Below, piece after piece: positions 6,084 to 64,000 of a stretch of DNA of 64,000 nt. The translations under genes and the position numbers were made by a program. The notes under the pieces were generated by a model that did not search any database, was not told where the DNA came from, and saw only the letters and a program-made list of their open reading frames with translations. Source of the DNA: an uncultured bacterium (lineage in GTDB: Bacteria > Hydrogenedentota > Hydrogenedentia > Hydrogenedentales > JAEUWI01); NCBI GenBank assembly GCA_963977445.1, contig CAXBPH010000003.1, positions 1 to 64,000 on the forward strand. Direction: 5' to 3'. Each line of letters opens with the position of its first letter. Positions within the stretch are counted from its first letter, which is position 1.

Positions 6084-6147
6084 TAATTTATCTCCCATTG
6101 CCTCACCGTGGAATGCAGGTAAGGACATACATGATTATCAGATCCAG

Positions 6148-6483: not shown

Positions 6484-6489
6484 TTGTTA

Positions 6490-7410: not shown

Positions 7411-7425
7411 GGTATGCCTCCTGTC

Positions 7426-45963: not shown

Positions 45964-46066
45964 TTGGTTCCGGCTCCATAGGGCGGTATGAGATAGTATC
46001 CCCATGCCCCGGTAAAACCGGGGTCATGGGGAGTGAAACTTTATTGTACTATAGGGATAGAGACGC

Positions 46067-47989: not shown

Positions 47990-48100
47990 TGTATTTATTC
48001 CTCCTGATAGTACAACCCGACGGGGGCTGCCTGGCTCGTGGTATGAACGACGCTCCGCTCGGGAAGCGATGTGTAACGGTATAACTTCAGTTCGTCAGTT

Positions 48101-48796: not shown

Positions 48797-48880
48797 AGTT
48801 AGTCGTACTTCTATAAGTCAGATTGAATTGGCACTGCAAACGCCGTTTGGGGGCATAGGCTATGCGGCCCCGGTTGGGGT

Positions 48881-49933: not shown

Positions 49934-49951
49934 GGGCTTGCATCCACACAC

Positions 49952-49978
49952 TTAGCACTCAGCCAGCGGGAGTGCTAA
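49952..49978. promoter_or_regulatory. CIRCE operator
   Basis: Exact TTAGCACTC-N9-GAGTGCTAA, 18 nt upstream of the hrcA ATG. Confidence 0.97.
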
Positions 49979-49989
49979 CAGGTGCCCAA

Positions 49990-50018
49990 AGTCTAACACA
50001 CCCATGGGGTCGTGTCAA
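49990..50018 (-). promoter_or_regulatory. Sigma70 promoter of the hrcA operon
   Basis: Minus strand TTGACA-N17-TAGACT just upstream of CIRCE. Confidence 0.85.
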
Positions 50019-50130
50019 GTTGGCGACCGTTGCAAGTACCATGCCCCGAAGTATATAACGGGGCCGTACCCGTGGTGTCCTTGTTGTATCGCGCCGCTGG
50101 GTAAATTCGAATTTCAGGAAGGGTTGCGGA

Positions 50131-51282
50131 GTGAATGACGTAGGAGCCATGCAGAAATCAATGGGGGTCACCGGTTCCCCCCGCGACACGATATTGACCC
50201 TTCTCGAGATCATCGATGTGCAGGAAAATGGCGACCGACCCTGGGACATACAAATCAAGCAACCCACGGCATACCAACGTTTTATGAGCGAAGGACGCCT
50301 CGGTCTCGGCGAAGCCTATATGGATGGCGACTGGGATTGTGACGATCTCGCCGAATTCTTCCATCGCATCCTTTCTGCCAATTTCACCGACCGGGTGGAC
50401 TGGTGGCGCATGATTATCCCGTATCTCCGGGCCCGACTCCTCAATCTCCAGAGTGTACACCGCTCGCGGGAAGTTGCGGAGCGCCATTATGATCTCGGCA
50501 ATGGCTTGTATGAAAAAATGCTCGACAAGCGCATGGTATATTCCTGTGGTTACTGGAAAGATGCGACCGACCTGGAAACGGCCCAGGAACACAAGCTCGA
50601 CCTGGTTTGTCGTAAACTTGGGCTAAAACCCGGCATGAAAGTCCTCGATGTGGGCTGTGGCTGGGGCTCCTTTGCCCGGTTCGCCGCCGAGCGCTATGGC
50701 GTTGAGGTCGAGGGCATCACTATCTCGAAGGAGCAGTTGAGCCTGGCCAGGGAACATTGTGCCGGCCTCCCGGTCAACCTCCATCTCAAAGATTACCGCG
50801 ATCTGACGGGCCAGTGGGACCGGGTGGTCTCCATCGGCATGCTGGAGCACGTCGGCCGAAAGAACTACGATGGATTCATGACCCAACTGCGCGATTGGCT
50901 CACCCCGGATGGCCTGGCCCTCGTCCACACCATCGTGGGGCGCTATCCCGTGCGGCGGAGCGACCCATGGATTACGAAATACATCTTCCCCGGTGGCATG
51001 TTGCCCACGCCCGGTCAATTGGGCGCATCCTTCGAGGGCAAACTGGTCCTGGAAGACCTTCACAATATCGGCGCGGATTATGACAAGACGATCATGGCGT
51101 GGTGGGCCAATTTTGAGAAGGCCTGGCCCGAATTGGAGGCGGAATATGGGGAGCGTTTCTATCGGATGTGGCGCTACTACCACCACTACTGTGCCGGCTC
51201 CTTTCGCGCACGGTACAATCACGTGTTTCAAATGGTTTTGTCGCGACACGGCGTGCCCGGTGGTTATGAAGCCGTTCGATAG
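50131..51282 (+). CDS. cfa: Cyclopropane-fatty-acyl-phospholipid synthase
   Basis: GLGEAYMDG, HYDLGN, YSCGYW, VLDVGCGWG, SIGMLEHVG, YIFPGG. Confidence 0.92.
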   Translation: MNDVGAMQKSMGVTGSPRDTILTLLEIIDVQENGDRPWDIQIKQPTAYQRFMSEGRLGLGEAYMDGDWDCDDLAEFFHRILSANFTDRVDWWRMIIPYLRARLLNLQSVHRSREVAERHYDLGNGLYEKMLDKRMVYSCGYWKDATDLETAQEHKLDLVCRKLGLKPGMKVLDVGCGWGSFARFAAERYGVEVEGITISKEQLSLAREHCAGLPVNLHLKDYRDLTGQWDRVVSIGMLEHVGRKNYDGFMTQLRDWLTPDGLALVHTIVGRYPVRRSDPWITKYIFPGGMLPTPGQLGASFEGKLVLEDLHNIGADYDKTIMAWWANFEKAWPELEAEYGERFYRMWRYYHHYCAGSFRARYNHVFQMVLSRHGVPGGYEAVR

Positions 51283-51352
51283 CAGCCCGTGGCCCCCACG
51301 GATTGCCCACCACCAATCCAATTCCATCTAACCGAAGCAGGAGACGACCGGA

Positions 51353-52453
51353 GTGCGAGTCCTCTTCAATGCCATGCAGGCAGGCAACCAGAGCGGCACC
51401 GGGCGCTATGTGGAGGAACTCCTCCCTGCCCTCGCGGCCCTGGAGGATGCGCCCGAGTTCACGGTCGTCTGGCCGGAAGACGTGCCCCTGCCCGCAGGAA
51501 GCGACCGGCTGGAAATACGCCTCCAGCCCCGGGGACTGCGCCACCGTTTGGCCCTGGAGCGACGTCTTTACACGATGGCGGGGCAATTTGATGTCGTCCA
51601 CTACCCCGCGACCATCGGCCCCCTGTGGCGCAAACCCAACCTGGTCATCACGGTACACGATTGTATTTTTCTCCACCACCCCGAGTGGTTCCGCAGAGAA
51701 CGGGCTCTCTATTATCGATGGGCCGGAGCCTGGAGCATAGGGCGGGCCGCCCACCTTATTGCAGATTCAACGCATACCGCCCGGGATCTGGAGGCTTGGC
51801 TGTCCCCTCCCCCACCGAATATCACCACCATTCCCCTGGGCGTAAGCGAGTCCTTTCGGCCGCAGGGCGCGGATGCTGTGGAGCGCGTCCGGAAACGCTA
51901 TCAACTTCCTGAACGCTTCTTCCTCTACGTCGGCACCCTCGAACCCCGCAAAAATCTTGCCCGTATCGTCCGCGCCTGGGATCAGGTTGCCGCCACCCTG
52001 CCCGAAGACCTGGTTATCGCGGGGCGGATCGGTTGGAAAACCGGCGAACTGGAGGGAGCCATAGCCGCTGCGACGCACCAGGACCGCATCCACTGCCCCG
52101 GCTTCATTGAGTCCTCCGACCTGCCCGCGCTACTCTCCGCCGCCCACGCCTTCGTCTGGCCCAGCCTCTACGAAGGCTTCGGCCTGCCCGTGCTGGAGGC
52201 CATGGCCTGCGGCACCCCGGTCATCACCGCCAACACCACGAGCCTCCTGGAAATTGCAGACGGCGCGGCTCTCACTGTAGATCCTCGGGATGAAGGAGCC
52301 CTCGCCCGGGCGTTAACCCAAATCTCGACGGATGGGGACCTTCACCGCACACTCGGAACGGCGGGACGTAAACGGGCTGATGAATTCACCTGGCAGCGTT
52401 GTGCCCAGGAAACCCGGGCGGTCTATGCCACGGTGGCCAACGCCCGCATCTGA
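51353..52453 (+). CDS. GT4 family glycosyltransferase
   Basis: YVGTLEPRKN, PSLYEGFGLPVLEAMACGTPV. Confidence 0.92.
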   Translation: MRVLFNAMQAGNQSGTGRYVEELLPALAALEDAPEFTVVWPEDVPLPAGSDRLEIRLQPRGLRHRLALERRLYTMAGQFDVVHYPATIGPLWRKPNLVITVHDCIFLHHPEWFRRERALYYRWAGAWSIGRAAHLIADSTHTARDLEAWLSPPPPNITTIPLGVSESFRPQGADAVERVRKRYQLPERFFLYVGTLEPRKNLARIVRAWDQVAATLPEDLVIAGRIGWKTGELEGAIAAATHQDRIHCPGFIESSDLPALLSAAHAFVWPSLYEGFGLPVLEAMACGTPVITANTTSLLEIADGAALTVDPRDEGALARALTQISTDGDLHRTLGTAGRKRADEFTWQRCAQETRAVYATVANARI

Positions 52454-52560
52454 GCCCCACACGGGCCATCCGGAGCCCTTGGGCGGACCCCAAGTCGTCC
52501 TGCATGCCGCCAACGTGGGATATCTACAGAAGAAACGAATCCCGGCCTATCACAGATTTT

Positions 52561-52621
52561 TTGCCGCAAGAGAACGCAAAGAGCGCAAAGGATTCACTTC
52601 TTTGCGATCGCTTGCGGCCAA
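52561..52621. repeat. Inverted-repeat element of the ...gaacgcaaaga... type
   Basis: gccgcaagagaacgcaaaga pairs imperfectly with tctttgcgatcgcttgcggc; related motif near 15649-15676. Confidence 0.5.
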
Positions 52622-52687
52622 TACCATTGTCCCTGCGTTTATAATCGCCAAGGGTGTCGGCTTCAACGGTATTAGTCCATGAACCCC

Positions 52688-52738
52688 AAAAAAAAACGAC
52701 GCGCTTCGGAGGGCCAAGGCTCTCACAAAGCGCGTCGT
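52688..52738 (-). terminator. Intrinsic terminator after the repeat protein
   Basis: Stem acgacgcgctt/aagcgcgtcgt followed by a T9 tract on the minus strand. Confidence 0.8.
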
Positions 52739-52761
52739 AGAATTACGAACCGATATTGAAA

Positions 52762-53586
52762 TTAGACGGCGTCGGAAACGATTTTCTTTCCGGTAACCGG
52801 GCAAACTTTGGCTTCACCTTCGGAAGAAGCGGCTTTGGCCTTGTCACACTCAGACTTGGCTTTGTCGCAGGTCTTGGCTTCGCCTTCGGAAGAAGCAGCC
52901 TTGGCCTTGTCACACTCAGCTTTCGCTTTGTCACAAGTCTTGGCTTCACCTTCGGAAGAAGCAGCCTTGGCCTTGTCACAAGCGGACTTGGGGCATTCGC
53001 CTTCAGAGGAAGCAGCCTTCGCTTTGTCACAGGTCTTGGCTTCACCTTCAGAAGAAGCGGCTTTGGCCTTGTCACACTCAGACGTGGCTTTGTCACAGGT
53101 CTTGGCTTCGCCTTCGGAAGAAGCAGCCTTGGCCTTGTCACAGGTCTTGGCTTCACCTTCGGAAGAAGCGGCCTTCGCTTTATCGCACTGCTTCGCTTCA
53201 CCTTCGGAGGAAGCAGCCTTGGCTACCTTCGTCTTGCAGCAGCTGGACGCTTCACCTTCAGAGGAAGCCGCCAACGCCTTATCGAAGGTCGCCTGCCGGT
53301 CGGCGATCAGCTTGGCTTTCTTTTCGCATGGCTGAAAGGCATCTTCATTCGCTGCGGAAACCGTCTGCATGCCGAAGAAGGAGGCAACACTGTTCTTAGC
53401 ACTCGTGATGGCGCAGGAACCTGATGCTCCGTTGTTCGCAACAACGCCAGCAGTCGCCACGCCGGATACGACGACCATAGCAGCAACGAAGGATGCCCAT
53501 TTGCCTTTGTTACGTTTCGGTGCTTGAGCCGTTTCTTCGGTCACAAGCTCTTCCTGATGTTCTTCGTTCATTGAATATTGCTCCAC
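52762..53586 (-). CDS. Membrane-anchored Cys-rich tandem-repeat protein
   Basis: One hydrophobic helix; nine AASSEGE units, mostly CDKAKAASSEGEAKT; own terminator; DNA repeats vary mainly at synonymous positions of this frame. Confidence 0.75.
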   Translation of the reverse strand: MEQYSMNEEHQEELVTEETAQAPKRNKGKWASFVAAMVVVSGVATAGVVANNGASGSCAITSAKNSVASFFGMQTVSAANEDAFQPCEKKAKLIADRQATFDKALAASSEGEASSCCKTKVAKAASSEGEAKQCDKAKAASSEGEAKTCDKAKAASSEGEAKTCDKATSECDKAKAASSEGEAKTCDKAKAASSEGECPKSACDKAKAASSEGEAKTCDKAKAECDKAKAASSEGEAKTCDKAKSECDKAKAASSEGEAKVCPVTGKKIVSDAV

Positions 53587-54090
53587 AAGTGTTTAAATAA
53601 GTTACCCATGCAATCTACACGATAAACATAGATTCAAAATTGACCCGATTTCATGTCAAAACCTGGAATTATTCGTAGGGTTCAGCATAACAAAAACTCC
53701 GCCACTTCGCAATCCTGTCGAAGCGCGCATTTCCACGAACCCGAAAGAAATGAAAACAACCTAACCATCTCAATTTAAAGGCGTTACATAAAGTGTGTCT
53801 TTAACCCACAATCGCTGGAACGGCTACGTCGTCAGCTCACCAAGTTTCAATGCAGTGCAATTTGTCCGAAAAATCGCTGAAAACAGGTTGGTTGGCCGAG
53901 AACATTCATGAAATAACTGCCCCATAGGCCATGCCCCCACGAAGCCCCGACTCAACCGGTATTTTGCCGACTTCCGACGATGTTGCCGATGTTTTTGAGG
54001 AAGTGGTGGCGGAGTCTTGTGCGGGTGTCTTGGTGGCTTGGGTCGTTGTCGGTCATCGTCGGCTGCCTTTTAAGATTGCCGAAAAGGGGC

Positions 54091-54294
54091 CTACTCTGCG
54101 GGATGCGCAGCCGTGATCGCGACGGGCTCCGAGGCCTCGCGGCTCTTGCGCATGAGTTCCTGGTCGATCATGCCAAGTTCGGCGGCCAAACCGGCTGCGG
54201 CTACGGACAGGCAGGTTTCTTCCACTTCCGCCGCGTGGCGCATCCATTCGGGAAAAGGAAACGCATCACTTGTGCTATTCATATCCATGGTCAT
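54091..54294 (-). CDS. Small hypothetical protein
   Basis: ATGA overlap with the upstream GNAT-like gene and AAAGG RBS. Confidence 0.5.
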   Translation of the reverse strand: MTMDMNSTSDAFPFPEWMRHAAEVEETCLSVAAAGLAAELGMIDQELMRKSREASEPVAITAAHPAE

Positions 54295-54857
54295 AGGTGC
54301 CTTTCCAGAATTCTCTCTGCATTGTCGCGCGAAAGTTCAAAGTACGTCAAGTTTTCGAAATCCACGTCAGGGCCCAACGGTGTCATCCAACACGCCCCTC
54401 CGTAGAAGGGTACGGACTGCGGCAAGGCATGTAGGCCCACTCGACCTCCAAAGCCTTCGTCCCAGCTTTGCCGGACGGCGCGCTCGAACAGGTGGGGACC
54501 AATCAGGCCGTATTTTCGCGTTTGCCCGATACCTGGAATGGTCCAGTTCCAAGGGGCGACTTCCAGGAAGTCTATATATACCAGCGGCTTGCCATGATCT
54601 TCGCCGAGTTGGGAGAAATGTGTCCCAGACTTGGTCAGCATGGCACCCTGCCATTCGTCGTCACAGACCACGGCGAATCCAGATGCAGGAACCAGGCGCA
54701 GGTGCTGCGCCTTGGCCCGCCAGTTCCAGTTGAGGCTCTGGGGTCGCTCGGAATAGGGAAGACCCGCGCGGGCTATTTCGAGAAGGATGCGGGAGCGTTC
54801 TGGAGTCCACACCGATTCCAGTGTCAGCAGGTCTTCAGGCGCGACGAGGAGGGCCAA
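54291..54857 (-). CDS. GNAT-like acetyltransferase, possibly N-terminally clipped
   Basis: VYIDFLEVAPWN, GFGGRVGLHALPQSVPFY; TTG start without a clear RBS. Confidence 0.7.
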   Translation of the reverse strand: MALLVAPEDLLTLESVWTPERSRILLEIARAGLPYSERPQSLNWNWRAKAQHLRLVPASGFAVVCDDEWQGAMLTKSGTHFSQLGEDHGKPLVYIDFLEVAPWNWTIPGIGQTRKYGLIGPHLFERAVRQSWDEGFGGRVGLHALPQSVPFYGGACWMTPLGPDVDFENLTYFELSRDNAERILERHL

Positions 54858-54876
54858 GCTGTTCTGCCTTCACGGC

Positions 54877-55260
54877 CTACTCACCCGTTGCGATGGCACT
54901 GGCGAAAGCGATTCCGCTCGAATAGCTAATACTCACATGCCAATCTAAGATACCGAGCTCATCAGAAAACTTTGCCACGTCATGATTTAGCCTTACATAT
55001 GGAGCCCCGTTCTTCCCCCGAAGAATTTCTATTCCATGCCACGTTATTTTTCCAGAAAACCCAGTACCAAGAGCCTTTGCGATGGCCTCCTTTGCGGCGT
55101 ATCTACCTGCATAGTAACGATAGTGGGCTGGGGGAGGGTCGGCGGCTTCTCGCTCGTCTATTGAGCAAAAGCAATTGACCCAGCTATTCGTACCTGAGTC
55201 AATTTCATTTCTTATACGTTGAATTCTTTCAATATCGATTCCGTGACCAATGATTCGCAT
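54877..55260 (-). CDS. acpS: AcpS-type 4'-phosphopantetheinyl transferase
   Basis: GHGIDI, AGRYAAKEAIAKALGTG, GAP, HVSISY. Confidence 0.88.
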   Translation of the reverse strand: MRIIGHGIDIERIQRIRNEIDSGTNSWVNCFCSIDEREAADPPPAHYRYYAGRYAAKEAIAKALGTGFSGKITWHGIEILRGKNGAPYVRLNHDVAKFSDELGILDWHVSISYSSGIAFASAIATGE

Positions 55261-55268
55261 GCATCCCC

Positions 55269-57152
55269 CTATTTTATTTCTCGAACTACGATATCTCTCT
55301 TGTCAAGATCCAGGTCAACAGTTCCGCCTCCACGAGATTTCAACTCTCTCCAAACTTTGAAGCCCTGCAGGATAGCGCGTTCCCATTCTCCCGTTGTGCA
55401 TGCTGACACCTCAAGATGAAGGACGGTATTCTTTATCATTCGTAACAATTCACTACTGACCGACAATTTACCCTCTAGGAAGTTGTAGTCACGAGCGTAG
55501 GCAAAAATCATTGCCGATAGTGCCTCTTCCGTGACAATCGCCCTTGCACCATCTTCCACTTCGTCAACTTTCGGATCACTCTTTCGCTTCGCTGTGAACA
55601 TTTTCCTGACGAGTGGAGACCAACCTAGAACCGCAGCGAAAGACAAATGGATTACATCGTGGAGTCCGTAACCATCGTTCTCGTAAGCGTTGTCAGTCAA
55701 GTCATCACCAAACTGCTGACCCTTGTACATCACCCGTATTTTTGGGTTGTTGAATTCGTCATGGTATGTGCTGAAATCGAGTGAAAAACTACGTGGAAAT
55801 TGTTCATTTTCGGGATATCCTGCATCGAACGGAGTTCGCGAAGGTAACGTGCCCCACCGTTCATCACATTTCGCCAAGTTAAGCTCGGCGATCTCCTTCA
55901 GATCGAGATTAAACTTCGTGGCGACGTTTGCCACATACCACAGCAAGTCTCCGAGTTCCTCGCTTAAGCGGTCCTTAAACAATTTATGCGTGTCACCGTC
56001 CCGAAGATATTTCTTGTATTCACTCAACAATTCACCGGATTCGCTTGCGAGGCCCAACAGAGGAATCGTTAGCGAAGACTCGTCCACACCGGGATTTTGA
56101 TCTGTCCCGGCAACTTTCTCTTGGTATTTGCCCATATCCATGGCTCTTGTCTCCAGGTTCACCCCCGTACTCGATCGATTTTCTTCGTTTGAGCTGGTAC
56201 GGCTGATTAATTCGTTTATGCCCCACTTGGGTGGGTACCAATAGTCGATTGGTTCTAAAATAGGCTTCAGCTTCTGCTTTATGCGACTTCGCCCTGATTT
56301 TCCGACGAATTCTGGATGTACAACTCGCGCGTACTTGTCTACTTCACAAAACAGGTTTTGGCAATCAATCAATTGAAGCGGCCTTCCCCATAAGTCGGAA
56401 AAATCTATGCCCAGTCGATTAAATTCCTCATCCTGCCTCTCGGTCACCCACCGGATTATTTGTGCAGTATCCTTCTTTCCCGGGTTTAGAAAGCACTTCT
56501 GGATTCCATCGAGTGCTCCGGGGCCTGCGACCACAAAGTCCATTTCAGAGAAGTTAATGATGGTGCTGTAGTTCAAATCGGTAACATACTGATAGGCTAG
56601 AAAGTTGCCTATCCCAGGTGATGACCGCATTGATTCGAACGCCTCTTCCATGGACTCCGAATCAGCAATTCGTTTCGGTAGCTCCGAAGACATCATGTAT
56701 TCAAGTAACTTAAGATGGTTCTGGTGTTTGAATGTTAGCGAAAATTTTCGGACGGAGGGCATTATATAGGCTGCGGAATAGATCCGCTGGCCTCGCGTCA
56801 TCGCCTGACTTAAGACACGGTCATATGCCTTGTATGAGTAATCGGCGTATGTGAGATGGCCAAGCTCATTCTCAAGTAGTTTCCATGTATCGATGCGATT
56901 GAAAAGTTTGAATAGAATTATGCGAAAAAACACTTCAGCTGGATGAGTCGGGAGGTCTTCGTTGTATATTACGTTCCTAATGAGATATTGGCTCACTCTG
57001 TCAGAGGCTCTGTAGGCGTTCGTGAATTTGTGGTTTTGAAGCACAGCGTCATCCGTCCACGGAAGAGGGCGCTTACTTATTCGTCGAAAGAAGATTCTCT
57101 GTCGCTCGGCGGCGAATTTCCAATACGTATCGTATACAGGAGTAGTTTTCAT
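55269..57152 (-). CDS. Fusion of aGPT-Pplase1/5-hmdU-kinase-helical-like domain, MazG pyrophosphatase and MazG C-terminal domain
   Basis: FAAERQRIF, FTNAYRASDRVSQYLI, HhH-like PGIGNFLAYQY, DCQNLFCEVDKYARV; MazG ESGE...EELGDLLWY; C-term GDDLTDN, HDVIH, EVEDGARA. Confidence 0.75.
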   Translation of the reverse strand: MKTTPVYDTYWKFAAERQRIFFRRISKRPLPWTDDAVLQNHKFTNAYRASDRVSQYLIRNVIYNEDLPTHPAEVFFRIILFKLFNRIDTWKLLENELGHLTYADYSYKAYDRVLSQAMTRGQRIYSAAYIMPSVRKFSLTFKHQNHLKLLEYMMSSELPKRIADSESMEEAFESMRSSPGIGNFLAYQYVTDLNYSTIINFSEMDFVVAGPGALDGIQKCFLNPGKKDTAQIIRWVTERQDEEFNRLGIDFSDLWGRPLQLIDCQNLFCEVDKYARVVHPEFVGKSGRSRIKQKLKPILEPIDYWYPPKWGINELISRTSSNEENRSSTGVNLETRAMDMGKYQEKVAGTDQNPGVDESSLTIPLLGLASESGELLSEYKKYLRDGDTHKLFKDRLSEELGDLLWYVANVATKFNLDLKEIAELNLAKCDERWGTLPSRTPFDAGYPENEQFPRSFSLDFSTYHDEFNNPKIRVMYKGQQFGDDLTDNAYENDGYGLHDVIHLSFAAVLGWSPLVRKMFTAKRKSDPKVDEVEDGARAIVTEEALSAMIFAYARDYNFLEGKLSVSSELLRMIKNTVLHLEVSACTTGEWERAILQGFKVWRELKSRGGGTVDLDLDKRDIVVREIK

Positions 57153-57200
57153 ATTAACCGGCCGAAAGTATACGAGTACAGTGGAGTCATTTTTGTCTTT

Positions 57201-58025
57201 CTAAAAATCGTCATGAATAGGCTCGGAAACTGTGCTCGTCACAGATTTGCAAAGTATTTTGTTAGAGCGCGTGATCAAGTCACGTGCATTGCGTACCCCC
57301 CAAGGAAATTGTTTTGAATCCTTAATTCTGGCTGGGCCTTTATCAATTTCGGCATGTGTGGAGACACAGGTGAGCGAACCGACGGTTAGGCCAGCTCGCT
57401 CTGCCACAAACGCCTGAAGTTGCCCCAAACCGATTAGATTGCCAAGGCACCGAGATATGTACGTGTGGTTACGGTACATTGCTGTAAGCATCAAGCCCTT
57501 GTTTGGATGACATTTAAAGCTCAAAAAACTGAGGCATTGTCCCCCCCATCGACTACGCCCATCCTCCAAGGGATCGTAAACCGCTAGCTCATATGCCGAC
57601 TTGAACTTCTGACCACCATTCTCGCGTTCTTGTAGCTTACCGATCAGCTGTTCTAGTGGATTGTATGTCTTGCCGAGCCTAGTCTGATGCCTGGTCATTC
57701 GCTCAAAGTACCTACCCCAGCGCCGGGTCTTCGTCAGTCTATCGAACGCTTCATGGTATTTCTCGTAGAACACCGGAGCCCCGTGCTGATTGTAGAGTGA
57801 TTGGGGAAAAATCGTGTTACAGACCGTGGATATGGGGTAGCAATCGTACTTTCGTAGAAAATCGTCTACCTCTGAAATGATTTCATTGTCAGTTGAATCG
57901 AACGATACGGGATTTTCTACATCAACAATAACGTTGTATCCCTCATCATTGTGCTTCATGATCTCCATTGCAGCCGCTACCCACGCTCGCGCACAACTCT
58001 TCTGTGTCGGGATGGCGATGTACAT
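57201..58025 (-). CDS. Divergent thymidylate synthase-fold protein
   Basis: GQCLSFLSF (catalytic Cys position); LTAMYRNH...LGNLIGL aligns with TS YQRS.D...PFN; VGSLTCVSTHA. Confidence 0.7.
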   Translation of the reverse strand: MYIAIPTQKSCARAWVAAAMEIMKHNDEGYNVIVDVENPVSFDSTDNEIISEVDDFLRKYDCYPISTVCNTIFPQSLYNQHGAPVFYEKYHEAFDRLTKTRRWGRYFERMTRHQTRLGKTYNPLEQLIGKLQERENGGQKFKSAYELAVYDPLEDGRSRWGGQCLSFLSFKCHPNKGLMLTAMYRNHTYISRCLGNLIGLGQLQAFVAERAGLTVGSLTCVSTHAEIDKGPARIKDSKQFPWGVRNARDLITRSNKILCKSVTSTVSEPIHDDF

Positions 58026-58037
58026 AGAAAGGTCTCC

Positions 58038-58685
58038 CTAATGCGTAATAAATGCGGAAAAGATTCGCGACCCGAGATAACGTTTGCTCAACCAGGCGTA
58101 GCCATGAAGGCCCCAGGATTCACCCCAACTGTTTCTGATAGCGATATACTTTTCGCTGTTTTTCGTAGCTGTTGCGACGGCAACAACAGCGTGTCGTCGA
58201 ACCGGGTCGATAGGCTCAGTTGAATCAACGATTCCAACGTTGTCCGGGGTATAGAACGCATCTGAGAACGACATCGCGAGGACGACGGGCTTGTCGGTTT
58301 GGATGCAGTCCCAAACGGCGTCAAATGTGGCGGTTAAGGCGCTAGTATGGCATTGGAAAAGTTGCCCTACGTTGTTGGGAGGCTTCCAGTGCGAAATTGG
58401 GCTTGGCAATGCCTTGAGGTAGGGCCAGGCGAGTTCGTTCGGTTGCCCGTCCCCAGTTAATGCAGAGCATACCCCCGGAATGGAAACACCCAAATCTGGA
58501 GAGCTTCTCTCCCACTTTATCGCGTAGTAGTATAGGTACTCACACGACAAGGGTTGCCAATTCCTCTCCAGTGCGGCGGAATGTGCGTCGCTCGTGGCGA
58601 ACGCCAGGCATGTCGGGCGCGCTCCTTGATCGCGAGCGCTGCCAAAATATGGTCGTAGGTCGTGACGGATAATCATCGAACTCAT
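58038..58685 (-). CDS. Papain-like (C1) cysteine peptidase, cytoplasmic
   Basis: RDQGARPTCLAFA (Gln, Cys), HAVVAV (His), IRNSWGESWGLHGY (Asn); no signal or prodomain. Confidence 0.88.
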   Translation of the reverse strand: MSSMIIRHDLRPYFGSARDQGARPTCLAFATSDAHSAALERNWQPLSCEYLYYYAIKWERSSPDLGVSIPGVCSALTGDGQPNELAWPYLKALPSPISHWKPPNNVGQLFQCHTSALTATFDAVWDCIQTDKPVVLAMSFSDAFYTPDNVGIVDSTEPIDPVRRHAVVAVATATKNSEKYIAIRNSWGESWGLHGYAWLSKRYLGSRIFSAFITH

Positions 58686-59695
58686 GGGCGACTCAACATT
58701 GCTTGGCGTTGAGCTGGCAGGAGGCCGGTTTGTAGTGGTCCTGTCAAGTTTACATCAAATTCGAGCGACTGTAGAGATTCATCATCTGAGAGCCATGGTC
58801 GCTGTTCACGAAGATTCACGTGACCGAGTGCCGACTGCTCCGGTTCAGCCACGATCTTACGTTCGACAATACTACCGATTGCATTTTCAGTCGAGCGGGC
58901 CTCTCGGATGTCCTCAACTATTTTGAGGCCGACTTTGGAGAGACTGTCAAACGACCACATGTACCCTGATGAAGCGTGTTCGATCAGCTCGAGAATCACG
59001 ATGTCGTGCGCGCTTCCTTCAATTAGGAGCCTTTGATCGCCCATGCCAAGCACCCATATATCCGCATACCATGATTCTGGGGTGTGCTGTTTGGTGAGCT
59101 GCTGCTTGATAGATTTTGGTTGGGTTTTGAGCAGGGAGTCTCGTACTGATTTCGAAATCGCATTGTGCTTGAGGAGCGCATGACAAGTCGCCGCATAGCT
59201 TGACCCCATCCGTAAGGCCAATTGGTAGACTATTTTCGGAGACGTTAGGTCTGAGCTCGCCCACCCTTGTTGACCCATGTGGTGCGTGATTAGCCATTTC
59301 GGTGTAAGCAGTTCGGAGGCAAACGCATTTGCCTGCAGTTCTATGAGATCAAGAGCTGCCCCGCTCTCAAACGGAGTTCGGTTTAGCCTGGATTCGTCAT
59401 CTAGACTAGACGAGTGCCCCATGACCGCGTGACCCAATTCGTGTGCTGCCGTGAAGCGCTGTACGGAAAGGGGGCGTTGTGTGGTCAACAGAACTCCAGA
59501 TCCATTTTCTTCCAAATAGCATCCGAGCAGCCCCTTCATCGGTTGGAACATGACAGGTATGTCGAGAGCTGCGAGAAGTCCAAACACATCGATGCGTCCC
59601 ACCCCACTCTTTACCTTTTTTTTGACACCATGGCTAGCATGTAATCGGTTAGCAGCAAGAGCCGCCTCGAGTATAGCCTTACGAACGTCTGGCAT
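58682..59695 (-). CDS. ImmA/IrrE family zinc metallopeptidase with C-terminal chagasin (I42)-like domain
   Basis: RFTAAHELGH, ELQANAFASELLTP; C-term LELIEHASSGYMW...IGS...QRPW. Confidence 0.8.
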   Translation of the reverse strand: MPDVRKAILEAALAANRLHASHGVKKKVKSGVGRIDVFGLLAALDIPVMFQPMKGLLGCYLEENGSGVLLTTQRPLSVQRFTAAHELGHAVMGHSSSLDDESRLNRTPFESGAALDLIELQANAFASELLTPKWLITHHMGQQGWASSDLTSPKIVYQLALRMGSSYAATCHALLKHNAISKSVRDSLLKTQPKSIKQQLTKQHTPESWYADIWVLGMGDQRLLIEGSAHDIVILELIEHASSGYMWSFDSLSKVGLKIVEDIREARSTENAIGSIVERKIVAEPEQSALGHVNLREQRPWLSDDESLQSLEFDVNLTGPLQTGLLPAQRQAMLSRP

Positions 59696-59698
59696 AGG

Positions 59699-60079
59699 TC
59701 AGCCCCCTTTTTGCGCTTTCCTCGATTTCAAGAATTCTGCGAATCTGGCGAGTTCGCTGCGATCTTCCGGGGCCAATTCAGATACCTGCCGTGCCAGATG
59801 AGCGACTTCCTTGTCAACTGGATGCGTGTCAGCGGTTTCACCGGTAAAAAAGTTCAGAGACCTCCCGTAGAGTTCGGCTAATTTCTTGAGTTCAAACACT
59901 TCAACTTTCCTCAGCCCTGCTTCCATCAAAGATAGCGCGGAACGAGAAGTACCTACTTTCGTGGCTATTTCGTTCTGGGAGAATCCAACATACTCTCGGG
60001 CTTCACGTAGCCGGTCACCAAGTACCTTTCTATCGCTATCACCTTCAACTTTTTTATTGTTGGGAGCTCTACTACTCAT
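59699..60079 (-). CDS. XRE-family HTH transcriptional regulator
   Basis: LGDRLREAREYVGFSQNEIA...RSALSLMEAGLRK; ATG at 60079 overlaps the upstream stop (ATGA). Confidence 0.9.
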   Translation of the reverse strand: MSSRAPNNKKVEGDSDRKVLGDRLREAREYVGFSQNEIATKVGTSRSALSLMEAGLRKVEVFELKKLAELYGRSLNFFTGETADTHPVDKEVAHLARQVSELAPEDRSELARFAEFLKSRKAQKGG

Positions 60080-60396
60080 TTGCTTCCCTTTCTTTTTTCC
60101 TCTTCTTGGCACAATTTATCTATACGCAGCATCATATCGTCAATTGCTTCATCAACACTTTGATAGCCGCCTTTTCGTATAGTCTTGTCTGGAGGTAGTC
60201 GAAAACCAACGATTGGCTCGATGGCTAACAAAGTGCTTACGACGGCAAAGGAGTCCAAAAGTGGCTCCCAAACCTTGCGCAACAGAGCCCCCTCATCCAC
60301 AATCTCGTCAAGCTTGTCAGTCAAAACTGCCCGAATTTCGCAAGAAGTCAAATGAACATCTTCGTCGATTTGAAACGCTGTGGATGTGTTTGCCAT
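60076..60396 (-). CDS. Hypothetical protein, first gene of the island operon
   Basis: AGGAG RBS 7 nt before ATG; stop coupled to the HTH start; follows a promoter. Confidence 0.65.
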   Translation of the reverse strand: MANTSTAFQIDEDVHLTSCEIRAVLTDKLDEIVDEGALLRKVWEPLLDSFAVVSTLLAIEPIVGFRLPPDKTIRKGGYQSVDEAIDDMMLRIDKLCQEEEKRKGSK

Positions 60397-60421
60397 ACCG
60401 AATCTCCTGTGCTACTTGGTT

Positions 60422-60450
60422 AGGATACCAAAATTCAGTTGGAAAATCAA
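60422..60450 (-). promoter_or_regulatory. Sigma70 promoter of the island operon
   Basis: Minus strand TTGATT-N17-TATCCT with extended -10 TG. Confidence 0.6.
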
Positions 60451-60463
60451 ACACAAAATATCA

Positions 60464-60486
60464 ATATGTTAGATTTTCTAACATAT
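60464..60486. promoter_or_regulatory. Candidate XRE operator
   Basis: Perfect inverted repeat ATATGTTAGA-TTT-TCTAACATAT. Confidence 0.6.
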
Positions 60487-60488
60487 GG

Positions 60489-60571
60489 TATAGCCCAGGG
60501 TTTTGCTTGTTCGCGCTTGGGGCGTGAACTTGCTGCGCCCTGGGCTATAGTGTGTCACCCCGTTGGGGCTA
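60489..60571. repeat. REP-like palindromic element at the island boundary
   Basis: 12-bp inverted repeat tatagcccaggg/ccctgggctata plus cccc-gtt-gggg hairpin. Confidence 0.65.
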
Positions 60572-60574
60572 TTC

Positions 60575-60822
60575 AGATCGCCCTGTACGGATTCGCCGAA
60601 GAATGACACTTCGCCCGAAGTGGGCGCCAGCAACCCCATGAGCACCTTGATGGTCGTGCTCTTACCCGCGCCATTGGGCCCGAGAAGGCCGAAGGCGGCC
60701 CCACGCTTTATTTGGAGATTGAGGCCGTGGACACCATCTCCGTGTTCGTAGGTTTTTACGAGTTCTGAGATTTCGACCACCGACTCGGTCTTCACCGGGG
60801 CCTGTTTATCCATAACCTGCAC
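60575..60822 (-). pseudogene. Truncated ABC transporter ATP-binding protein (5' fragment)
   Basis: Walker A GPNGAGKST present; no Q-loop, signature or Walker B; the frame runs into the REP-like element and stops at 60478. Confidence 0.8.
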
Positions 60823-60964
60823 GAAAACAACTCCCCTTGTTCTTCGCTGCAGAACCTGCGTGCAGCGGGAAAACTGCCAACGAAATAGCCCGATACGCTA
60901 TAGTACAAGACATTAATCTATCTGACAATCCCCAAAGATTAACCGGAAAGCCCAATCAAAATTC

Positions 60965-62293
60965 ATGGCCGAAGATCTATTTGAAAATGCCGCCGCTGAG
61001 CGGATGCGGAAGGAAGCCCCGCTGGCCCGCCGTATCGCCCCCCGCACCCTCGATGACTTTGTGGGGCAGGAGCATATCCTCGGGCATGGCAAACTCTTGC
61101 GTCGCGCCATCGAAGCCGATCGCATCACCTCCCTCCTCCTTTATGGTCCCCCGGGCACGGGCAAGACCGCGCTGGCGCGTATTATCGCCATGCGGACCAA
61201 ATCGGCCTTTGAACCCTTAAATGCGGTGACGTCGGGCGTGAAAGAGCTGCGGGAACTCCTGGCCCAGGCCAAGCAACGGCGCATCCACCAACAGAAGCGC
61301 ACCATCGTTTTCGTGGACGAAATTCACCGATTCAATAAGGCCCAGCAGGACGCCCTCCTCCCCGATGTGGAGAATGGCAACATCACCATGATCGGTGCCA
61401 CCACGGAGAACCCCTTCTTCTCCGTCGTCGCGCCTCTCCTCTCCCGTTCCCAGATTTTTGAATTCAAACGTCACACGGAAGAAGCCCTCGTCGGCTTACT
61501 GCGCCGCGCCCTCACACATCCCGAGCTGGGGATGGACCCCGAGACCATCACGGTAGACGACGACGCCTTCGCTCATATCGCGCGCTATGCCGAAGGGGAT
61601 GTGCGCCGTTCCCTCAATGCCTTGGAAGTGGCCCTGCTTACCACGCCGGTGGTCGATGAGAAGATTCACATCACCGTGGAAGAAGCCCGGGAATCCATCC
61701 AGCGCAAACTCCTCCACTACGATGGCACGGGCGATGGCCACTATGACGCGGCCTCGGCTTTTATCAAATCCATGCGGGGGAGCAATCCCGATTCGGCCCT
61801 CTATTGGATGGCCCGCATGCTGGAAGCCGGTGAAACGCCGCGCTTTGTGGCGCGACGCATCTGCATCGCCGCGTCGGAAGATGTGGGCAATGCCGACCCC
61901 ATGGCGCTGGTGCTGGCGAACGCCGCCTTCCAGACCTGTGAGTTCATCGGCATGCCCGAAGCGCGCATCATGCTCGCCCAGGCCGTGACCTACATCGCCG
62001 CCGCCCCCAAGAGCAATGCGTCCTACGCGGCCATCGACGCCGCCATCGCGGCCGTGCGGGAAGAAAAAACCACCGAAATTCCCAAACACCTCCAGGATGC
62101 CCACTACAAGGGGGCCAAACGACTGGGTCACGGGGCCAACTATCAGTATGCCCACGATTTTGAAGACAACTACGTCACCCAGGACTACGGCATCCCCCGG
62201 GGCACCTTCTATCAGCCCACGAAAAATGGCAAGGAAGCCGAAATAAAGGCCTGGATGGATGAACTCGACGCCCGGGACCGGGGAGAGAACTAG
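60965..62293 (+). CDS. rarA: Replication-associated recombination protein A
   Basis: [48 protein letters not shown]. Confidence 0.96.
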
Positions 62294-62393
62294 TCCACAC
62301 CGATACGCACTGGACAGCACGACGTCTTCGGGGGTATCGTAGTCGTAGCATCCTACTGCACTGACCCCATTGACCGATTGGAGGGCCTTTACC

Positions 62394-62831
62394 ATGCTGA
62401 CCTATTTTATATTGACGGGCATCATTGTCTTTGGATTTGCCTTTGCCATGTGGCTGGGCACCTTTCTGCTTAACCGCAGCATAAACACGACCCTGGAAAC
62501 CGAAGATGAGGCGCGGCACAATGTCGCCGGTCAACTCGGCTATGGCACCCTGCTGCTGGGCGCTACCATCATTCTCACGGTCGTATTCTTCCAAATGGAT
62601 CGGGCACCCATCATCCCCCCCATGCCCCCGGGGCTGCAGCCCGAGGGGATACGCCGGGAGGCTGAAGCGGAAAAAAAGGACACCAAGGCCATCGTCCCGG
62701 AGTCCAAGAAAGAAGCAGCGCCCCCTGCACCGGTCAATGGAGCACCCGAGGTCACCCCGCCGACCGATATTAAACCGGCGGAGCCGAAAGAAGCCATACA
62801 GCCGGAGGCATCATCCGCGCTATCGGTGTAG
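62394..62831 (+). CDS. Hypothetical membrane protein with Pro/Glu-rich tail
   Basis: GGAGG RBS; two hydrophobic helices. Confidence 0.6.
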   Translation: MLTYFILTGIIVFGFAFAMWLGTFLLNRSINTTLETEDEARHNVAGQLGYGTLLLGATIILTVVFFQMDRAPIIPPMPPGLQPEGIRREAEAEKKDTKAIVPESKKEAAPPAPVNGAPEVTPPTDIKPAEPKEAIQPEASSALSV

Positions 62832-62864
62832 ACGCTGAAGCGCTCAACGACCTTGGAACCTTCC

Positions 62865-64000
62865 ATGCACAAGTCTACGCGTTTCGCCTTGCTACTCTGC
62901 ACCCTGCTGTCCTTCGCGGCAGTCGGGAGCCCTACCTTCACGATGGTGCCCATGGACGACGGCACCAAACTCGCAACCGATGTCCATCTGCCCGGTGGTG
63001 AAGCACCCTGGCCCGCCATTGTCCTCCGCAGTACCTACGGGCGCATGGGTTCCGTGGCCCGCGAGTGGCTCGAACTGAATTATGCCGTCGTCATTCAGGA
63101 TGTCCGCGGCATGGGCGACAGCGAAGGTGAAGCCCATGTCTTCTATGCCGATGGATGGCGCGAGGACCAGCACGATGGGGCCGACACGGTCGCGTGGGTC
63201 AAGGCCCAGCCCTGGTGTGACGGCAAGATCGGCACCTGGGGCGGCTCCGCACTGGCCATCACCGAAATGCTCATGGCACCCACCACGCCGGATATAGCCG
63301 TGCAGCACATGGTCGCCACGCCCGCTAACCTCTATTTCGACACGGCCTACCATGGCGGCGTGTTGCGCAAAATGCTTATCGAAGGCTGGCTGACTTCGAT
63401 TAGACAACCCCATATGATCGACGTCTACAAAAGTCACCCCCGTTACGACGACTATTGGGCCCACTTTGACACCGTGGCAAAGGCGGCTGACATCAACGCA
63501 CCGGCCCTCTTTGAAAACGGGTGGTATGACATCTTTCAGCAGGGCACCATCGACGGATTTCTCGCCCGGGAAGGACAGGGCGCAGCCCCGGCAAAAGGCA
63601 ACAACTTTCTCATCATGAAATGGTCGAGTCATGGCCCCGACGTGGAAGACGATTACAAACTCAACGAAAACCGTTTCGACCTCAAAATCAGCAAACTACG
63701 CGACCAGATATTTCGACACTACCTCCGGGGCAACGACGACATCAGCGAGATCCCCAAGGTCCATTATTACGTCATGGGGGCGGACACCCCCAACGCGCCC
63801 GGCAACGAATGGCGCACAGCCAATCAGTGGCCGCCCTACGAAACAACGGCGACGACCTACTACTTACATCAGGACAGCACGCTCAGCACGAACACACCGA
63901 ATGCAGATGGCGTGCGCAGCTATGTCTTCGATCCCGCCAATCCCGTCCCCACCCATGGCGGCAACAACCTCCTCATGCCGTCCGGCGCCTTCAACCAGAA
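62865..64000 (+). CDS. CocE/NonD family hydrolase (runs off the window end)
   Basis: Hand translation: signal peptide MHKSTRFALLLC, MDDGTKLATDVHLP, QDVRGMGDSEG, WCDGKIGTWGGSA; absent from the ORF track because there is no stop in the window. Confidence 0.85.
   Translation, partial: MHKSTRFALLLCTLLSFAAVGSPTFTMVPMDDGTKLATDVHLPGGEAPWPAIVLRSTYGRMGSVAREWLELNYAVVIQDVRGMGDSEGEAHVFYADGWREDQHDGADTVAWVKAQPWCDGKIGTWGGSALAITEMLMAPTTPDIAVQHMVATPANLYFDTAYHGGVLRKMLIEGWLTSIRQPHMIDVYKSHPRYDDYWAHFDTVAKAADINAPALFENGWYDIFQQGTIDGFLAREGQGAAPAKGNNFLIMKWSSHGPDVEDDYKLNENRFDLKISKLRDQIFRHYLRGNDDISEIPKVHYYVMGADTPNAPGNEWRTANQWPPYETTATTYYLHQDSTLSTNTPNADGVRSYVFDPANPVPTHGGNNLLMPSGAFNQ

Follow-up and report, generated by a model that had tools for sequence, protein, structure and literature searches.

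The locus described here is a compact operon within a 64,000-nucleotide stretch of DNA from an uncultured bacterium of the Hydrogenedentota (GenBank assembly GCA_963977445.1, contig CAXBPH010000003.1, positions 1 to 64,000), the whole of which is termed the window below. Seven open reading frames (ORFs) from the ORF list of the window follow one another in tandem on the minus strand, spanning 54877-60396, and an operator-like site extends the feature to 60484, for an operon size of 5.6 kb. Numbered from the upstream end, these encode (g1) an acyl-carrier-protein-like product, (g2) an XRE-type helix-turn-helix (HTH) repressor, (g3) a zinc peptidase of the ImmA/IrrE type fused to a putative chagasin-family domain, (g4) a papain-family cysteine peptidase, (g5) a divergent enzyme of the thymidylate synthase (TS) fold, (g6) a fusion of HMUDK_hel, MazG, and MazG_C domains, and (g7) an AcpS-type 4'-phosphopantetheinyl transferase (PPTase). 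We consider it probable that the operon constitutes a defence system, and the evidence is set out below gene by gene before this reading is weighed against its rivals.

A first-pass annotation of the same DNA, made from the letters and their ORF translations, had proposed seven co-oriented genes joined by ATGA overlaps or gaps of 3-48 nt, and its coordinates and spacing hold throughout: the g1/g2 and g3/g4 junctions are ATGA overlaps, and the remaining gaps measure 3 nt (g2/g3), 12 nt (g4/g5), 48 nt (g5/g6), and 8 nt (g6/g7). It had also described the genes as more AT-rich than their flanks. This too is correct, individual island genes having a GC content of 0.449-0.535 (i.e., 45-53.5%) vs 57-64% for flanking genes (0.571 for an ABC-transporter fragment, 0.584 for a 188-aa ORF, and 0.609 for rarA), with 0.562 for the entire window. 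Its domain calls (XRE HTH, IrrE/ImmA-chagasin, papain-like, TS-fold, helical-MazG, and AcpS) agree with the results of Pfam, PADLOC, NCBIfam, and Foldseek searches. The 106-aa ORF at the head of the operon does exist as described, but had been left unexplained; it is now seen to be acyl-carrier-like, with an invariant Asp-Ser.

To place the operon in a wider context, genomes (one per species) were scanned with a g5 profile, and six-frame ORFs of the resulting 65 loci were searched with the proteins of the window. Genes g1-g5 are all present and in identical order in 56 of these loci; seven of the other nine are truncated by contig ends, and two are remnants. Homologues of g5 were found in 65/65 loci, of g4 in 61/65, of g2 in 59/65, of g3 in 59/65, and of g1 in 44/65 by search (56 after clustering), with parts of g6 present in 61/65. 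An arrangement shared by 56 of 65 loci in other genomes is far beyond what chance would give. Conservation of the gene neighbourhood, which the first-pass annotation had singled out for checking, is thus evident across phyla, the genes behaving as one unit, and the objection that the order might not be conserved elsewhere therefore fails. By record title, the hosts include Planctomycetota, Gemmatimonadota, Acidobacteriota, Armatimonadota, Nitrospirota, Alpha-, Beta-, and Gammaproteobacteria, and Bacteroidota. The g5 family amounts to 1,738 clusters at 90% identity, and the g6 (HMUDK_hel/MazG) family to at least 8,000 clusters.

Matches to g5 were also obtained in 23 plasmid records, 13 of them typed as conjugative, and in none of 50,697 phage records (tblastn, E<=1e-3). 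An archaeal copy (locus L067) resides on the Haloarcula marina plasmid NZ_CP100410.1 at 1585-7774, where an Sfp-type PPTase, an unknown 191-aa gene, and genes for ACP-like (acyl carrier protein-like), HTH, ImmA-I42, C1 peptidase, and TS-fold proteins are accompanied by a divergent HMUDK_hel gene and a dTMP kinase, with a restriction endonuclease next door. We conclude that the operon is horizontally acquired, and that the feature is real, conserved, and mobile. In two loci (L021, 9932-11662; L065, 5220-6114), partial g5 together with partial g6 or g4 is all that is present, despite ample flanking sequence; these degenerate remnants indicate that the system can decay in place.

Repressor, proteases, and carrier protein

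The best palindrome in a search of the promoter region is an operator-like site, ATGTTAGAAAATCTAACAT, located upstream of g1 on the minus strand (60466-60484), with a second operator half-site, TTGATTTTCCAAC (60438-60450, minus strand), overlapping a -35-like TTGATT. Expressed as the pattern G[AT]A[AT][AT]TCN[GA]A[CA], the half-site occurs at 60468 and 60442, with just two other copies in the 64 kb. Of 56 loci that could be evaluated, 47 have the same pattern within their 400-nt promoter window; its density is 2.86 per kb in promoter windows vs 0.034 per kb in the rest of the loci (~84-fold), the pattern having been written post hoc from these same sequences. A string of the form 'TTGATTTTC(G/C/A)GAC' stands at the same relative position in most of the related loci compared, and a motif of the form TGTCNGAAAATCNGACA precedes g1 in loci of different phyla. 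This putative operator motif provides good indirect evidence that g2 may autoregulate the operon. The single promoter postulated in the first-pass annotation fared less well, as a scan for the sigma-70 consensus, which planctomycete promoters may not fit, detected no minus-strand site upstream of g1; the conserved palindromic operator is what lies there. Overall, the scan returned 3 sites vs a mean of 6.5 in shuffled sequences. No minus-strand terminator was found after g7.

The product of g2 (59699-60079 from ATG, minus strand; 126 aa) is a CapH-like repressor by its matches to Pfam HTH_31 (6.7e-12) and HTH_3 (3.2e-11) and to the PADLOC capH model (3.5e-15, model positions 4-101 of 103), in keeping with a repressor that has a predicted C-terminal oligomerization region; its ORF could also start upstream, at a GTG at 60112. 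Adjoining it is g3 (58682-59695, minus strand; 337 aa), the N-terminal part of which is an M78 (ImmA/IrrE) zinc peptidase (Peptidase_M78, 9.2e-11, residues 45-174). The PADLOC capP model is matched at 4.7e-16 across the peptidase part only (model positions 20-152 of 242), and a profile of the g3 family recovers IrrE (8slm, 8.6e-7; 3dte, 1.1e-5) and CapP (7t5t, 7.1e-5) from the PDB. The resemblance of this HTH/IrrE-type pair to CapH/CapP, suggested in the first-pass annotation, is thus upheld. In 39 g3 sequences, H85, E86, H89, and D99 are invariant, preserving the HExxH motif, and the downstream Glu E119, along with H94 and R299-P300-W301, is at least 90% conserved. No cysteine occurs between H89 and E119, a segment instead containing the conserved H94 and D98-D99-E100.

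For the C-terminal part of g3, the Inhibitor_I42 (chagasin-family) match over residues 230-306 (5.8e-5, 23.7 bits) lies below the Pfam cut-off of 27.2. Residues 213-314 in a profile of the 39 family members match amoebiasin-2 at 3.9e-11, as well as amoebiasin-1, Pseudomonas ICP, and chagasin itself; the Haloarcula g3 homologue attains 43.5 bits (4.1e-11) for I42, and PF09394 is found in about one third of the 120 g3 homologues among the matches listed. Chagasins contact their target proteases through three loops, NPTTG, GxGG, and RPW/F. The RPW loop is kept in g3, and the other two are variant, reading G-S-G-Y-x-W (G244, Y245, W247) and I-G-G (G274). Among the matches listed, all 120 g3 homologues are 325-362 aa in length, and none is fused to g4.

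The start of g4 (58038-58685, minus strand; 215 aa) overlaps the stop of g3. Its product is a cytoplasmic papain-family (C1) cysteine peptidase (PF00112, 1.7e-11, 45.1 bits vs a cut-off of 20.7), with Q20, C26, H165, N185, and W187 invariant in 38 sequences; since the catalytic Cys is already reached at residue 26, no propeptide is present. In a gammaproteobacterial metagenome-assembled genome (L063, 8338-10023), g3 and g4 form one in-frame ORF of 562 aa, which may be a natural fusion or the outcome of a one-base assembly or sequencing error at the ATGA overlap. Seven of the g5-bearing plasmid records are without g4, and the two of these that were inspected, from Streptomyces (L069) and Allocoleopsis (L070), encode ACP, HTH, ImmA, TS-fold, HMUDK_hel, and MazG-MazG_C proteins with no C1 peptidase. 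The ImmA proteins of both are shorter, at 298 and 293 aa, and neither has an I42 match (2/2 C1-less variants), such that the I42 domain and the C1 peptidase are jointly present or jointly absent in the variants inspected. This suggests that the putative protease latch was added later to an ACP-HTH-ImmA-TS core.

The close coupling of g3 and g4 also invites a different interpretation, in which the operon would be a protease-based abortive-infection or toxin-antitoxin module: g4 would kill, the chagasin domain of g3 would be its antitoxin, and the nucleotide enzymes would be accessory or belong to a second, linked system. An intact C1 peptidase with no propeptide, translationally coupled to the gene for a fused I42 inhibitor and sharing its presence and absence in the variants inspected, speaks for such a module. 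The plasmid data point elsewhere, however, as g4 homologues occur solely where g5 does (all 16 accessions are contained within the 23 listed for g5), and the variants lacking g4 retain ACP-HTH-ImmA-TS-HMUDK_hel-MazG. The constant core is therefore the nucleotide module rather than the protease, and we judge the protease-module explanation to be unlikely.

At the head of the operon, g1 (60076-60396, minus strand; 106 aa) has a candidate phosphopantetheine site at Ser49. Across 40 sequences of its family, D48-S49 and G76-G77 are the sole invariant residues. When the family profile was compared with the PDB, the best match was 7b0n_T (2.9e-5), with Ser49 aligned to the phosphopantetheine serine of the DSL motif; 117 matches were obtained at E<=10, and of the 60 listed, all but three are carrier proteins by name. 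In the ESM Atlas, g1 is situated near "Carrier domain" and "Acyl carrier protein family" clusters (0.93-0.94 by features), and its Atlas model (pLDDT 0.63) superposes on an ACP cluster with a TM score of 0.72. The gene at the position of g1 in the Streptomyces and Allocoleopsis plasmid variants is annotated "acyl carrier protein"; the Streptomyces protein passes the Pfam PP-binding model PF00550 (32.3 bits vs 20.8) and can be aligned to the g1 family by hhalign with a probability of 88%, its serine matching Ser49. For g1 itself, no Pfam match was obtained even at E<=10, and the NCBIfam ACP model NF005480 yielded an E value of 0.013, with 15.4 bits falling short of the cut-off of 72. On sequence grounds, g1 is best described as a divergent branch of the acyl carrier proteins.

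The last gene, g7 (54877-55260, minus strand; 127 aa), encodes an AcpS-type PPTase according to Pfam ACPS PF01648 (2.9e-16, 59.9 bits vs 25), TIGR00516 (64.3 bits vs 59.8), and TIGR00556 (72 vs 45.35). The presence of a carrier-like protein such as g1 would account for the inclusion of AcpS in the operon. Homologues of AcpS immediately adjoin the system in 22 of 65 loci, located past the end of g6 in some and oriented divergently from g1 in others; one is likewise found beside the system on a Bradyrhizobium plasmid, and the Haloarcula plasmid has its Sfp-type PPTase in place of AcpS. That g7 could be the housekeeping AcpS of the host was considered and ruled out by its GC content (0.471 vs 0.584 for the next gene) and by the linkage in 22 loci.

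Nucleotide enzymes and their apparently exchangeable parts

No Pfam match (PF00303 included) was obtained for the product of g5 (57201-58025, minus strand; 274 aa) even at E<=10, nor was there a PDB match by sequence profile, and the score against TIGR03283 (1.7e-10, 40.8 bits) is under the cut-off of 174.55. Its assignment to the TS fold comes from an AlphaFold2 model (pLDDT 91.8), for which a Foldseek search of the PDB returned thymidylate synthases and the CMP hydroxymethylase MilA with a probability of 1.0, E values of ~2e-9, and TM scores of 0.45-0.56 (0.55-0.56 for MilA); among viral models, phage TS and dCMP hydroxymethylases were recovered at an equal level. An hhalign comparison with Escherichia coli ThyA, at a probability of only 48.7%, pairs C164 with the nucleophile C146, R185 with the phosphate-binding R166, and N196 with the uracil-reading N177, and all three g5 residues are invariant in 48 sequences.

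The neighbouring gene g6 (55269-57152, minus strand; 627 aa) encodes HMUDK_hel (aa 4-282, 2.5e-114), MazG (aa 366-432, 5.4e-6), and MazG_C (aa 440-625, 8.3e-70) domains, as detected by Pfam. In Foldseek searches with its model (pLDDT 89.3), the N-terminal part resembles the 5-PmdU glycinyltransferase of phage PaMx11 (8z2n; probability 0.99, E 0.08) as well as endonuclease III-3 (probability 0.90). For the MazG part, structural similarity is to DCTPP1/RS21-C6 dCTPases (probability 1.0). An Atlas search gave no usable look-alikes of MazG_C beyond PF18722. The two halves of g6 are matched by the PHROGs phrog_2396 and phrog_229, and relatives are named "putative DNA base hypermodification protein" by NCBI. 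With the Foldseek matches of g5 and the Pfam and Foldseek matches of g6, the kinship of these pyrimidine-nucleotide enzymes to thymidine-hypermodification domains noted in the first-pass annotation is substantiated.

Variation among the 65 loci is concentrated in this module. Loci with MazG_C number 55 and those with MazG 54; HMUDK_hel occurs in 29, fused to MazG as here or encoded as a separate gene, and a further 30 loci are of a second type, in which a convergent gene pair encodes MazG-MazG_C and a ~230-aa protein of the uracil-DNA glycosylase (UDG) superfamily. HMUDK_hel and the UDG-family gene never occur together, and one or the other is found in 59/65 loci. On a g5 tree of 55 rows, by which alone these counts were corrected for relatedness, the HMUDK_hel/UDG label switches at least 6 times, and well-supported branches force no fewer than 3 of these switches. 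This pattern suggests that the two are interchangeable parts, as opposed to clade markers. Extra genes are also found, namely a dCTP-deaminase-like gene in 17 loci (PF22769, ~1e-12 to 1e-13), no counterpart of which is present in the window, and a metallophosphatase-TS-like fusion in 9 loci.

These enzymes could also act on the DNA of their own host or plasmid, producing 5-hydroxymethyl-dUMP or a derivative of it and using the HMUDK_hel/PUGT-like domain to insert or process it in DNA, in the way that phages hypermodify thymidine, for self-marking or restriction evasion. Such a role is in keeping with the HMUDK_hel match of 2.5e-114, the likeness of the g6 N-terminus to a 5-PmdU glycinyltransferase at a probability of 0.99, and the NCBI naming of relatives, as well as with the typical pairing of a TS-fold enzyme and MazG in hypermodification clusters, as described in PMC5889632 and PMC11472151. 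It is harder to reconcile with the absence from the window of a P-loop 5-hydroxymethyl-deoxyuridine (5-hmdU) DNA kinase domain by Pfam, the lack of any match to g5 among the 50,697 phage records, an expression mode that appears to be protease-controlled repression and not constitutive, and the half of the loci that carry, in place of HMUDK_hel, a UDG-family protein, the activity of which is to remove bases and not to decorate them. Self-modification is thus a rather improbable function for the operon.

The combination of a carrier protein, a PPTase, and an enzyme akin to the C5-hydroxymethylase MilA might further be taken for a small nucleoside natural-product pathway, with HTH/ImmA as its regulator. 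ACP and PPTase are indeed hallmarks of secondary metabolism, and MilA ranks high among the structural matches of g5. However, the island contains no adenylation, ketosynthase, condensation, acyltransferase, or export genes; N196 of g5 aligns with the uracil-reading Asn of ThyA and not with a cytosine-reading Asp; and the genes recur as a compact block across at least nine phyla and in an archaeon, beside restriction-modification, BREX, Wadjet, and Gabija systems. A biosynthetic pathway of this kind would be very surprising.

Defence neighbourhood and island borders

Flanking genes were sampled by taking every third of the 43 loci with at least 5 kb on both sides, for a total of 15 loci and 143 crudely called flank ORFs, which were compared with PADLOC models at E<=1e-10. 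Matches were found for 23/143 ORFs, within 5 kb of the system in 10/15 loci. Six loci have unmistakable neighbours: BrxL and PglX (BREX), a type I restriction enzyme, JetABC (Wadjet), GajA/GajB (Gabija), AbiEii (in a locus that also has a methyl-directed restriction enzyme), and PDC-M21A/B. For comparison, 1/37 ordinary ORFs of the window matches PADLOC, through a methyltransferase similarity (Fisher one-sided p=0.022, from crude ORF calls, a small control, and some generic matches such as a kinase, a cyclase, and a group II intron reverse transcriptase). Proximity to defence islands, which the first-pass annotation had raised as a check, thus applies to related loci, often situated beside known systems, but not to the window's own copy.

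In Devosia-type loci (L053, 15045-16399; L050, 15037-16394), genes matching PDC-M21A and PDC-M21B of a PADLOC candidate system (5.7e-85 and 3.1e-110) directly follow the metallophosphatase-TS fusion, and PDC-M21C is encoded near the system in L018. These PDC-M21 genes may represent a neighbouring system or accessory genes of the present one.

The upstream border of the island is formed by the N-terminal fragment of an ABC-transporter ATPase (60478-60822, minus strand; 114 aa), which matches ABC_tran at 8.3e-14 over residues 32-95 only. Similarity stops near residue ~80, with unrelated sequence after it, and no ABC signature motif that might belong to the remainder of the gene is present anywhere else within the window. 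At the junction of island and fragment lies a 28-nt imperfect inverted repeat (60489-60549; 75% complementary, 5-nt loop), which may be a terminator or an insertion scar. At the other border, a 188-aa ORF (54291-54857, minus strand) starts 19 nt downstream of g7 and may be co-transcribed with the island. It has no match in Pfam (E<=10), NCBIfam, PHROG, or PADLOC, and was ruled out as a member of the system, given that 0/65 loci have a homologue and that its GC content (0.584) is host-like; for these reasons, the end of the island was placed at 54877. A search for tRNAs in 45000-64000 was negative, as was an Rfam scan of the window; the window ORFs scanned against Pfam include no match to integrase or transposase families, and no convincing flanking direct repeat was found, the two-copy 14-22-nt families present looking like chance.

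Elsewhere in the window, planctomycete-type and housekeeping genes are found, including PSCyt/PSD1, DUF1501/DUF1800, sulfatases, hrcA-grpE-dnaK-dnaJ, and rarA. A 274-aa ORF (52762-53586, minus strand) combines a hydrophobic stretch at its N-terminus with numerous tandem CDKAKAASSEGEAKT-like units and has no Pfam family, and the opposite strand bears repetitive ORFs of equal length. A pair of ORFs at 51353-52453 and 50131-51282 encodes a glycosyltransferase and a CFA-synthase-like methyltransferase. The former lies 3.6 kb from the island, and its Pfam matches include a secondary one to "GT4 in conflict systems" (PF20706, 3.5e-10), weaker than those to the general GT1/GT4 families; the latter matches PADLOC mad2 (1.5e-23); both probably reflect generic family similarity.

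The setting of the window copy, beside rarA, downstream of a heat-shock operon, and among housekeeping genes, would suit a DNA-damage-inducible cassette for nucleotide-pool sanitation or repair, carried on mobile elements and serving repair as opposed to immunity. An IrrE/DdrO-like switch would there induce the TS-like enzyme, MazG, and a UDG or EndoIII-like domain so as to restore the dTMP supply and remove dUTP or oxidized pyrimidines. The g3 matches to Deinococcus IrrE structures (8slm, 3dte) speak for such a cassette, as do the housekeeping relatives of MazG, UDG, and TS. Conversely, the flank ORFs of related loci are enriched for defence genes; the spread of the operon is patchy and horizontal, with low GC and plasmid copies; g5 is far from canonical ThyA and without PF00303; and a repair cassette offers no place for a latent papain-like protease, a chagasin domain, or a carrier protein. 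Related domains also conferred phage defence in the E. coli system DS-4, according to the study describing it (see below). Repair as the primary role therefore has a low probability in our estimation.

A layered model and its relation to known systems

We favour, with a probability of about 0.5, a layered model in which the operon is a horizontally acquired, conserved candidate anti-phage (or anti-mobile-element) system with four functional layers and a control logic like that of CapH/CapP. In this model, g2 would repress the operon by binding the conserved promoter palindromes, and by analogy with the action of CapP on CapH, the ImmA/IrrE peptidase of g3 would cleave g2 and thereby lift repression. 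The I42 domain of g3, judging by the specificity of its family and by its co-occurrence with the peptidase, would bind the translationally coupled g4 and keep it inactive until the system fires. The invariant Asp-Ser of g1 and the linked transferase suggest that g7 phosphopantetheinylates g1. As effector module, the TS-fold g5 would act alongside a DCTPP1-like MazG with MazG_C and a domain that handles DNA bases, i.e., HMUDK_hel in this operon and, in other lineages, a UDG-family protein. The putative cysteine nucleophile of g5 is kept, as are the Arg and Asn predicted to read a uracil nucleotide. Together, these effectors would divert dUMP, deplete a pyrimidine deoxynucleoside triphosphate (dNTP), and remove or alter bases derived from uracil in DNA undergoing replication. 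Phage DNA synthesis would then stop, in a thymineless or abortive state. The proposed chemistry is the weakest part of the model.

A more speculative extension, which we hold to be doubtful, would give the phosphopantetheinylated carrier a chemical part in immunity, making this the first such pathway; its thiol would serve as nucleophile or as latch, and the chagasin-gated protease would provide a second, post-translational trigger. As a nucleophile, the g1 thiol might attack the C5-methylene intermediate of the TS-fold enzyme or, alternatively, a 5-(phospho)methyl-uracil on which the PUGT-like HMUDK_hel domain acts; phage replication would then be blocked by a nucleotide tethered to the carrier or by a covalent adduct of DNA and protein. 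As a latch, it might plug the ImmA-like zinc site or the papain-like peptidase in trans, in the manner of a cysteine switch, until consumed by an infection-derived metabolite. We know of no defence system with a chagasin-gated papain-like protease as its trigger.

Several points weigh against the layered model. On the regulatory side, the operator pattern was derived from the very sequences in which it was then counted, the I42 match of the window's g3 is sub-threshold, and the trigger may be something other than single-stranded DNA (ssDNA), given that g3 has neither a GAF domain nor a switch cysteine. On the enzymatic side, g5 is strongly divergent (no PF00303, TM ~0.5, hhalign 48.7%), with Thr at the position of the folate-contacting D169 of ThyA. 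AcpS was detected in only 22/65 loci, the operon encodes no carrier-loading enzyme, and the model gives no reason for a carrier. As for genomic context, the PADLOC comparison has the limits stated above, there is no recognized defence gene within 5 kb of the window's own copy, and this copy sits amid housekeeping genes (hrcA-grpE-dnaK-dnaJ, CFA synthase, rarA).

Should a function in defence be confirmed, the novel aspects would be (i) an acyl-carrier-type protein paired with a dedicated phosphopantetheinyl transferase, (ii) a papain-family protease inside the cell that is restrained by a chagasin domain, and (iii) a CapP-like sensor peptidase with a protease inhibitor in place of its ligand-binding domain. 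The repeated and mutually exclusive exchange of HMUDK_hel and UDG points to a base in DNA as the target. The model, if true, would provide a biochemical handle on a large family linking phage thymidine-hypermodification enzymes to host immunity, and it is directly testable, the operon being compact and its putative operator and catalytic residues already located.

The statement in the first-pass annotation that this combination is not a named system stands insofar as no PADLOC 2.0 model matches g1 or g4-g7, but the tables of the DefensePredictor study (PMC13092281) contain a partial precedent in DS-4. Our literature searches found no description of (i) an anti-phage system combining chagasin with ImmA/IrrE, (ii) a chagasin-metallopeptidase-HTH operon, (iii) a conflict system with MazG, TS, papain-like, and ACP components, or (iv) a PPTase/ACP defence. 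A carrier protein with PPTase and a chagasin-gated papain-like protease both appear to be undescribed in immunity.

The regulatory pair is closest to CapH/CapP, with DdrO/IrrE and ImmR/ImmA as further relatives: g2 fits the capH model over nearly its full length, the M78 peptidase of g3 fits both capP and IrrE, and a predicted palindromic operator lies in the promoter of the operon containing the pair. Unlike CapH/CapP, the HTH/ImmA genes are here inside the operon, co-directional with it, and preceded by a carrier-protein gene. In CapP, the C-terminal GAF domain forms a groove for ssDNA (PMC13228613); in g3, a predicted I42 domain takes the place of GAF, and ssDNA sensing is therefore not simply to be assumed. 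The switch-loop of g3 is also without cysteine, having instead the conserved His94...Asp-Asp-Glu loop; the cysteine-switch loop is not universal among CapP homologues (PMC13228613 and bioRxiv 10.1101/2022.04.27.489752).

The g3/g4 pair recalls chagasin/papain partnerships (chagasin, amoebiasins/EhICP, and bacterial ICPs) in that a predicted I42 domain with an RPW loop is encoded beside an intact C1 peptidase. It differs in the fusion of inhibitor to regulatory metallopeptidase and in the presence of both partners in the cytoplasm, encoded by one operon; to our knowledge, known I42 proteins are stand-alone.

A precedent for the effector module comes from DefensePredictor. According to that study (PMC13092281), a 5-hydroxymethyluracil kinase domain and a thymidylate synthase are newly validated in defence, and its tables list E. 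coli DS-4 as defensive, with TS, an adenylate-kinase-like dNMP kinase, HMUDK_hel (the gene being named "DNA base hypermodification protein"), TIR, and a hypothetical protein. Systems with aGPT-Pplase, MazG, MazG-C, and dUTPase are predicted there but unvalidated, the legend of Fig. 6F defines HTH and UDG, and earlier predictions of such domains in defence are credited to Burroughs et al. 2015. A 220-aa "uracil-DNA glycosylase" in Table S4 of the same source is a predicted defence gene and, as judged by eye, shares motifs with the UDG-family set of our related loci. The present operon, or its UDG variant, may already have been drawn as a prediction in DefensePredictor or by Burroughs et al. 2015. 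By a comparison of domain lists, DS-4 has in common with our operon a TS-family enzyme and an HMUDK_hel protein in one defence-linked operon. Its TS is nevertheless canonical, with the PF00303 that g5 does not have; its TS + dNMP kinase + HMUDK_hel + TIR + NMAD set includes a TIR and a P-loop kinase, neither of which is in the window island; and in the same lists, it is without HTH/ImmA, C1 peptidase, chagasin, ACP, PPTase, MazG, and MazG_C. The TS, kinase, and HMUDK_hel of the Haloarcula locus form the same triad as listed for DS-4.

Phage thymidine-hypermodification pathways comprise dUMP hydroxymethylase, 5-HMUDK, aGPT-Pplase/PUGT, and MazG-type pyrophosphatases, and a TS-fold enzyme and MazG are typical of their clusters (PMC5889632 and PMC11472151). 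The TS fold, HMUDK_hel, the PUGT-like fold, and MazG are common to our operon. The latter is, however, cellular or plasmid-borne, without amino-acid or pyridoxal phosphate (PLP) tailoring enzymes, and apparently repressible in its expression, and no island protein matches a kinase family in Pfam that could represent the P-loop 5-hmdU DNA kinase of the phage clusters.

A final likeness, to nucleotide-depleting defences, is seen in the dCTP-deaminase-like gene of 17/65 loci and in MazG as a dNTP pyrophosphatase. The dCTP deaminase and dGTPase defences are single-gene systems, whereas the present operon has as obligatory partners an enzyme of the TS fold, a domain for base handling, two proteases, and a carrier protein.

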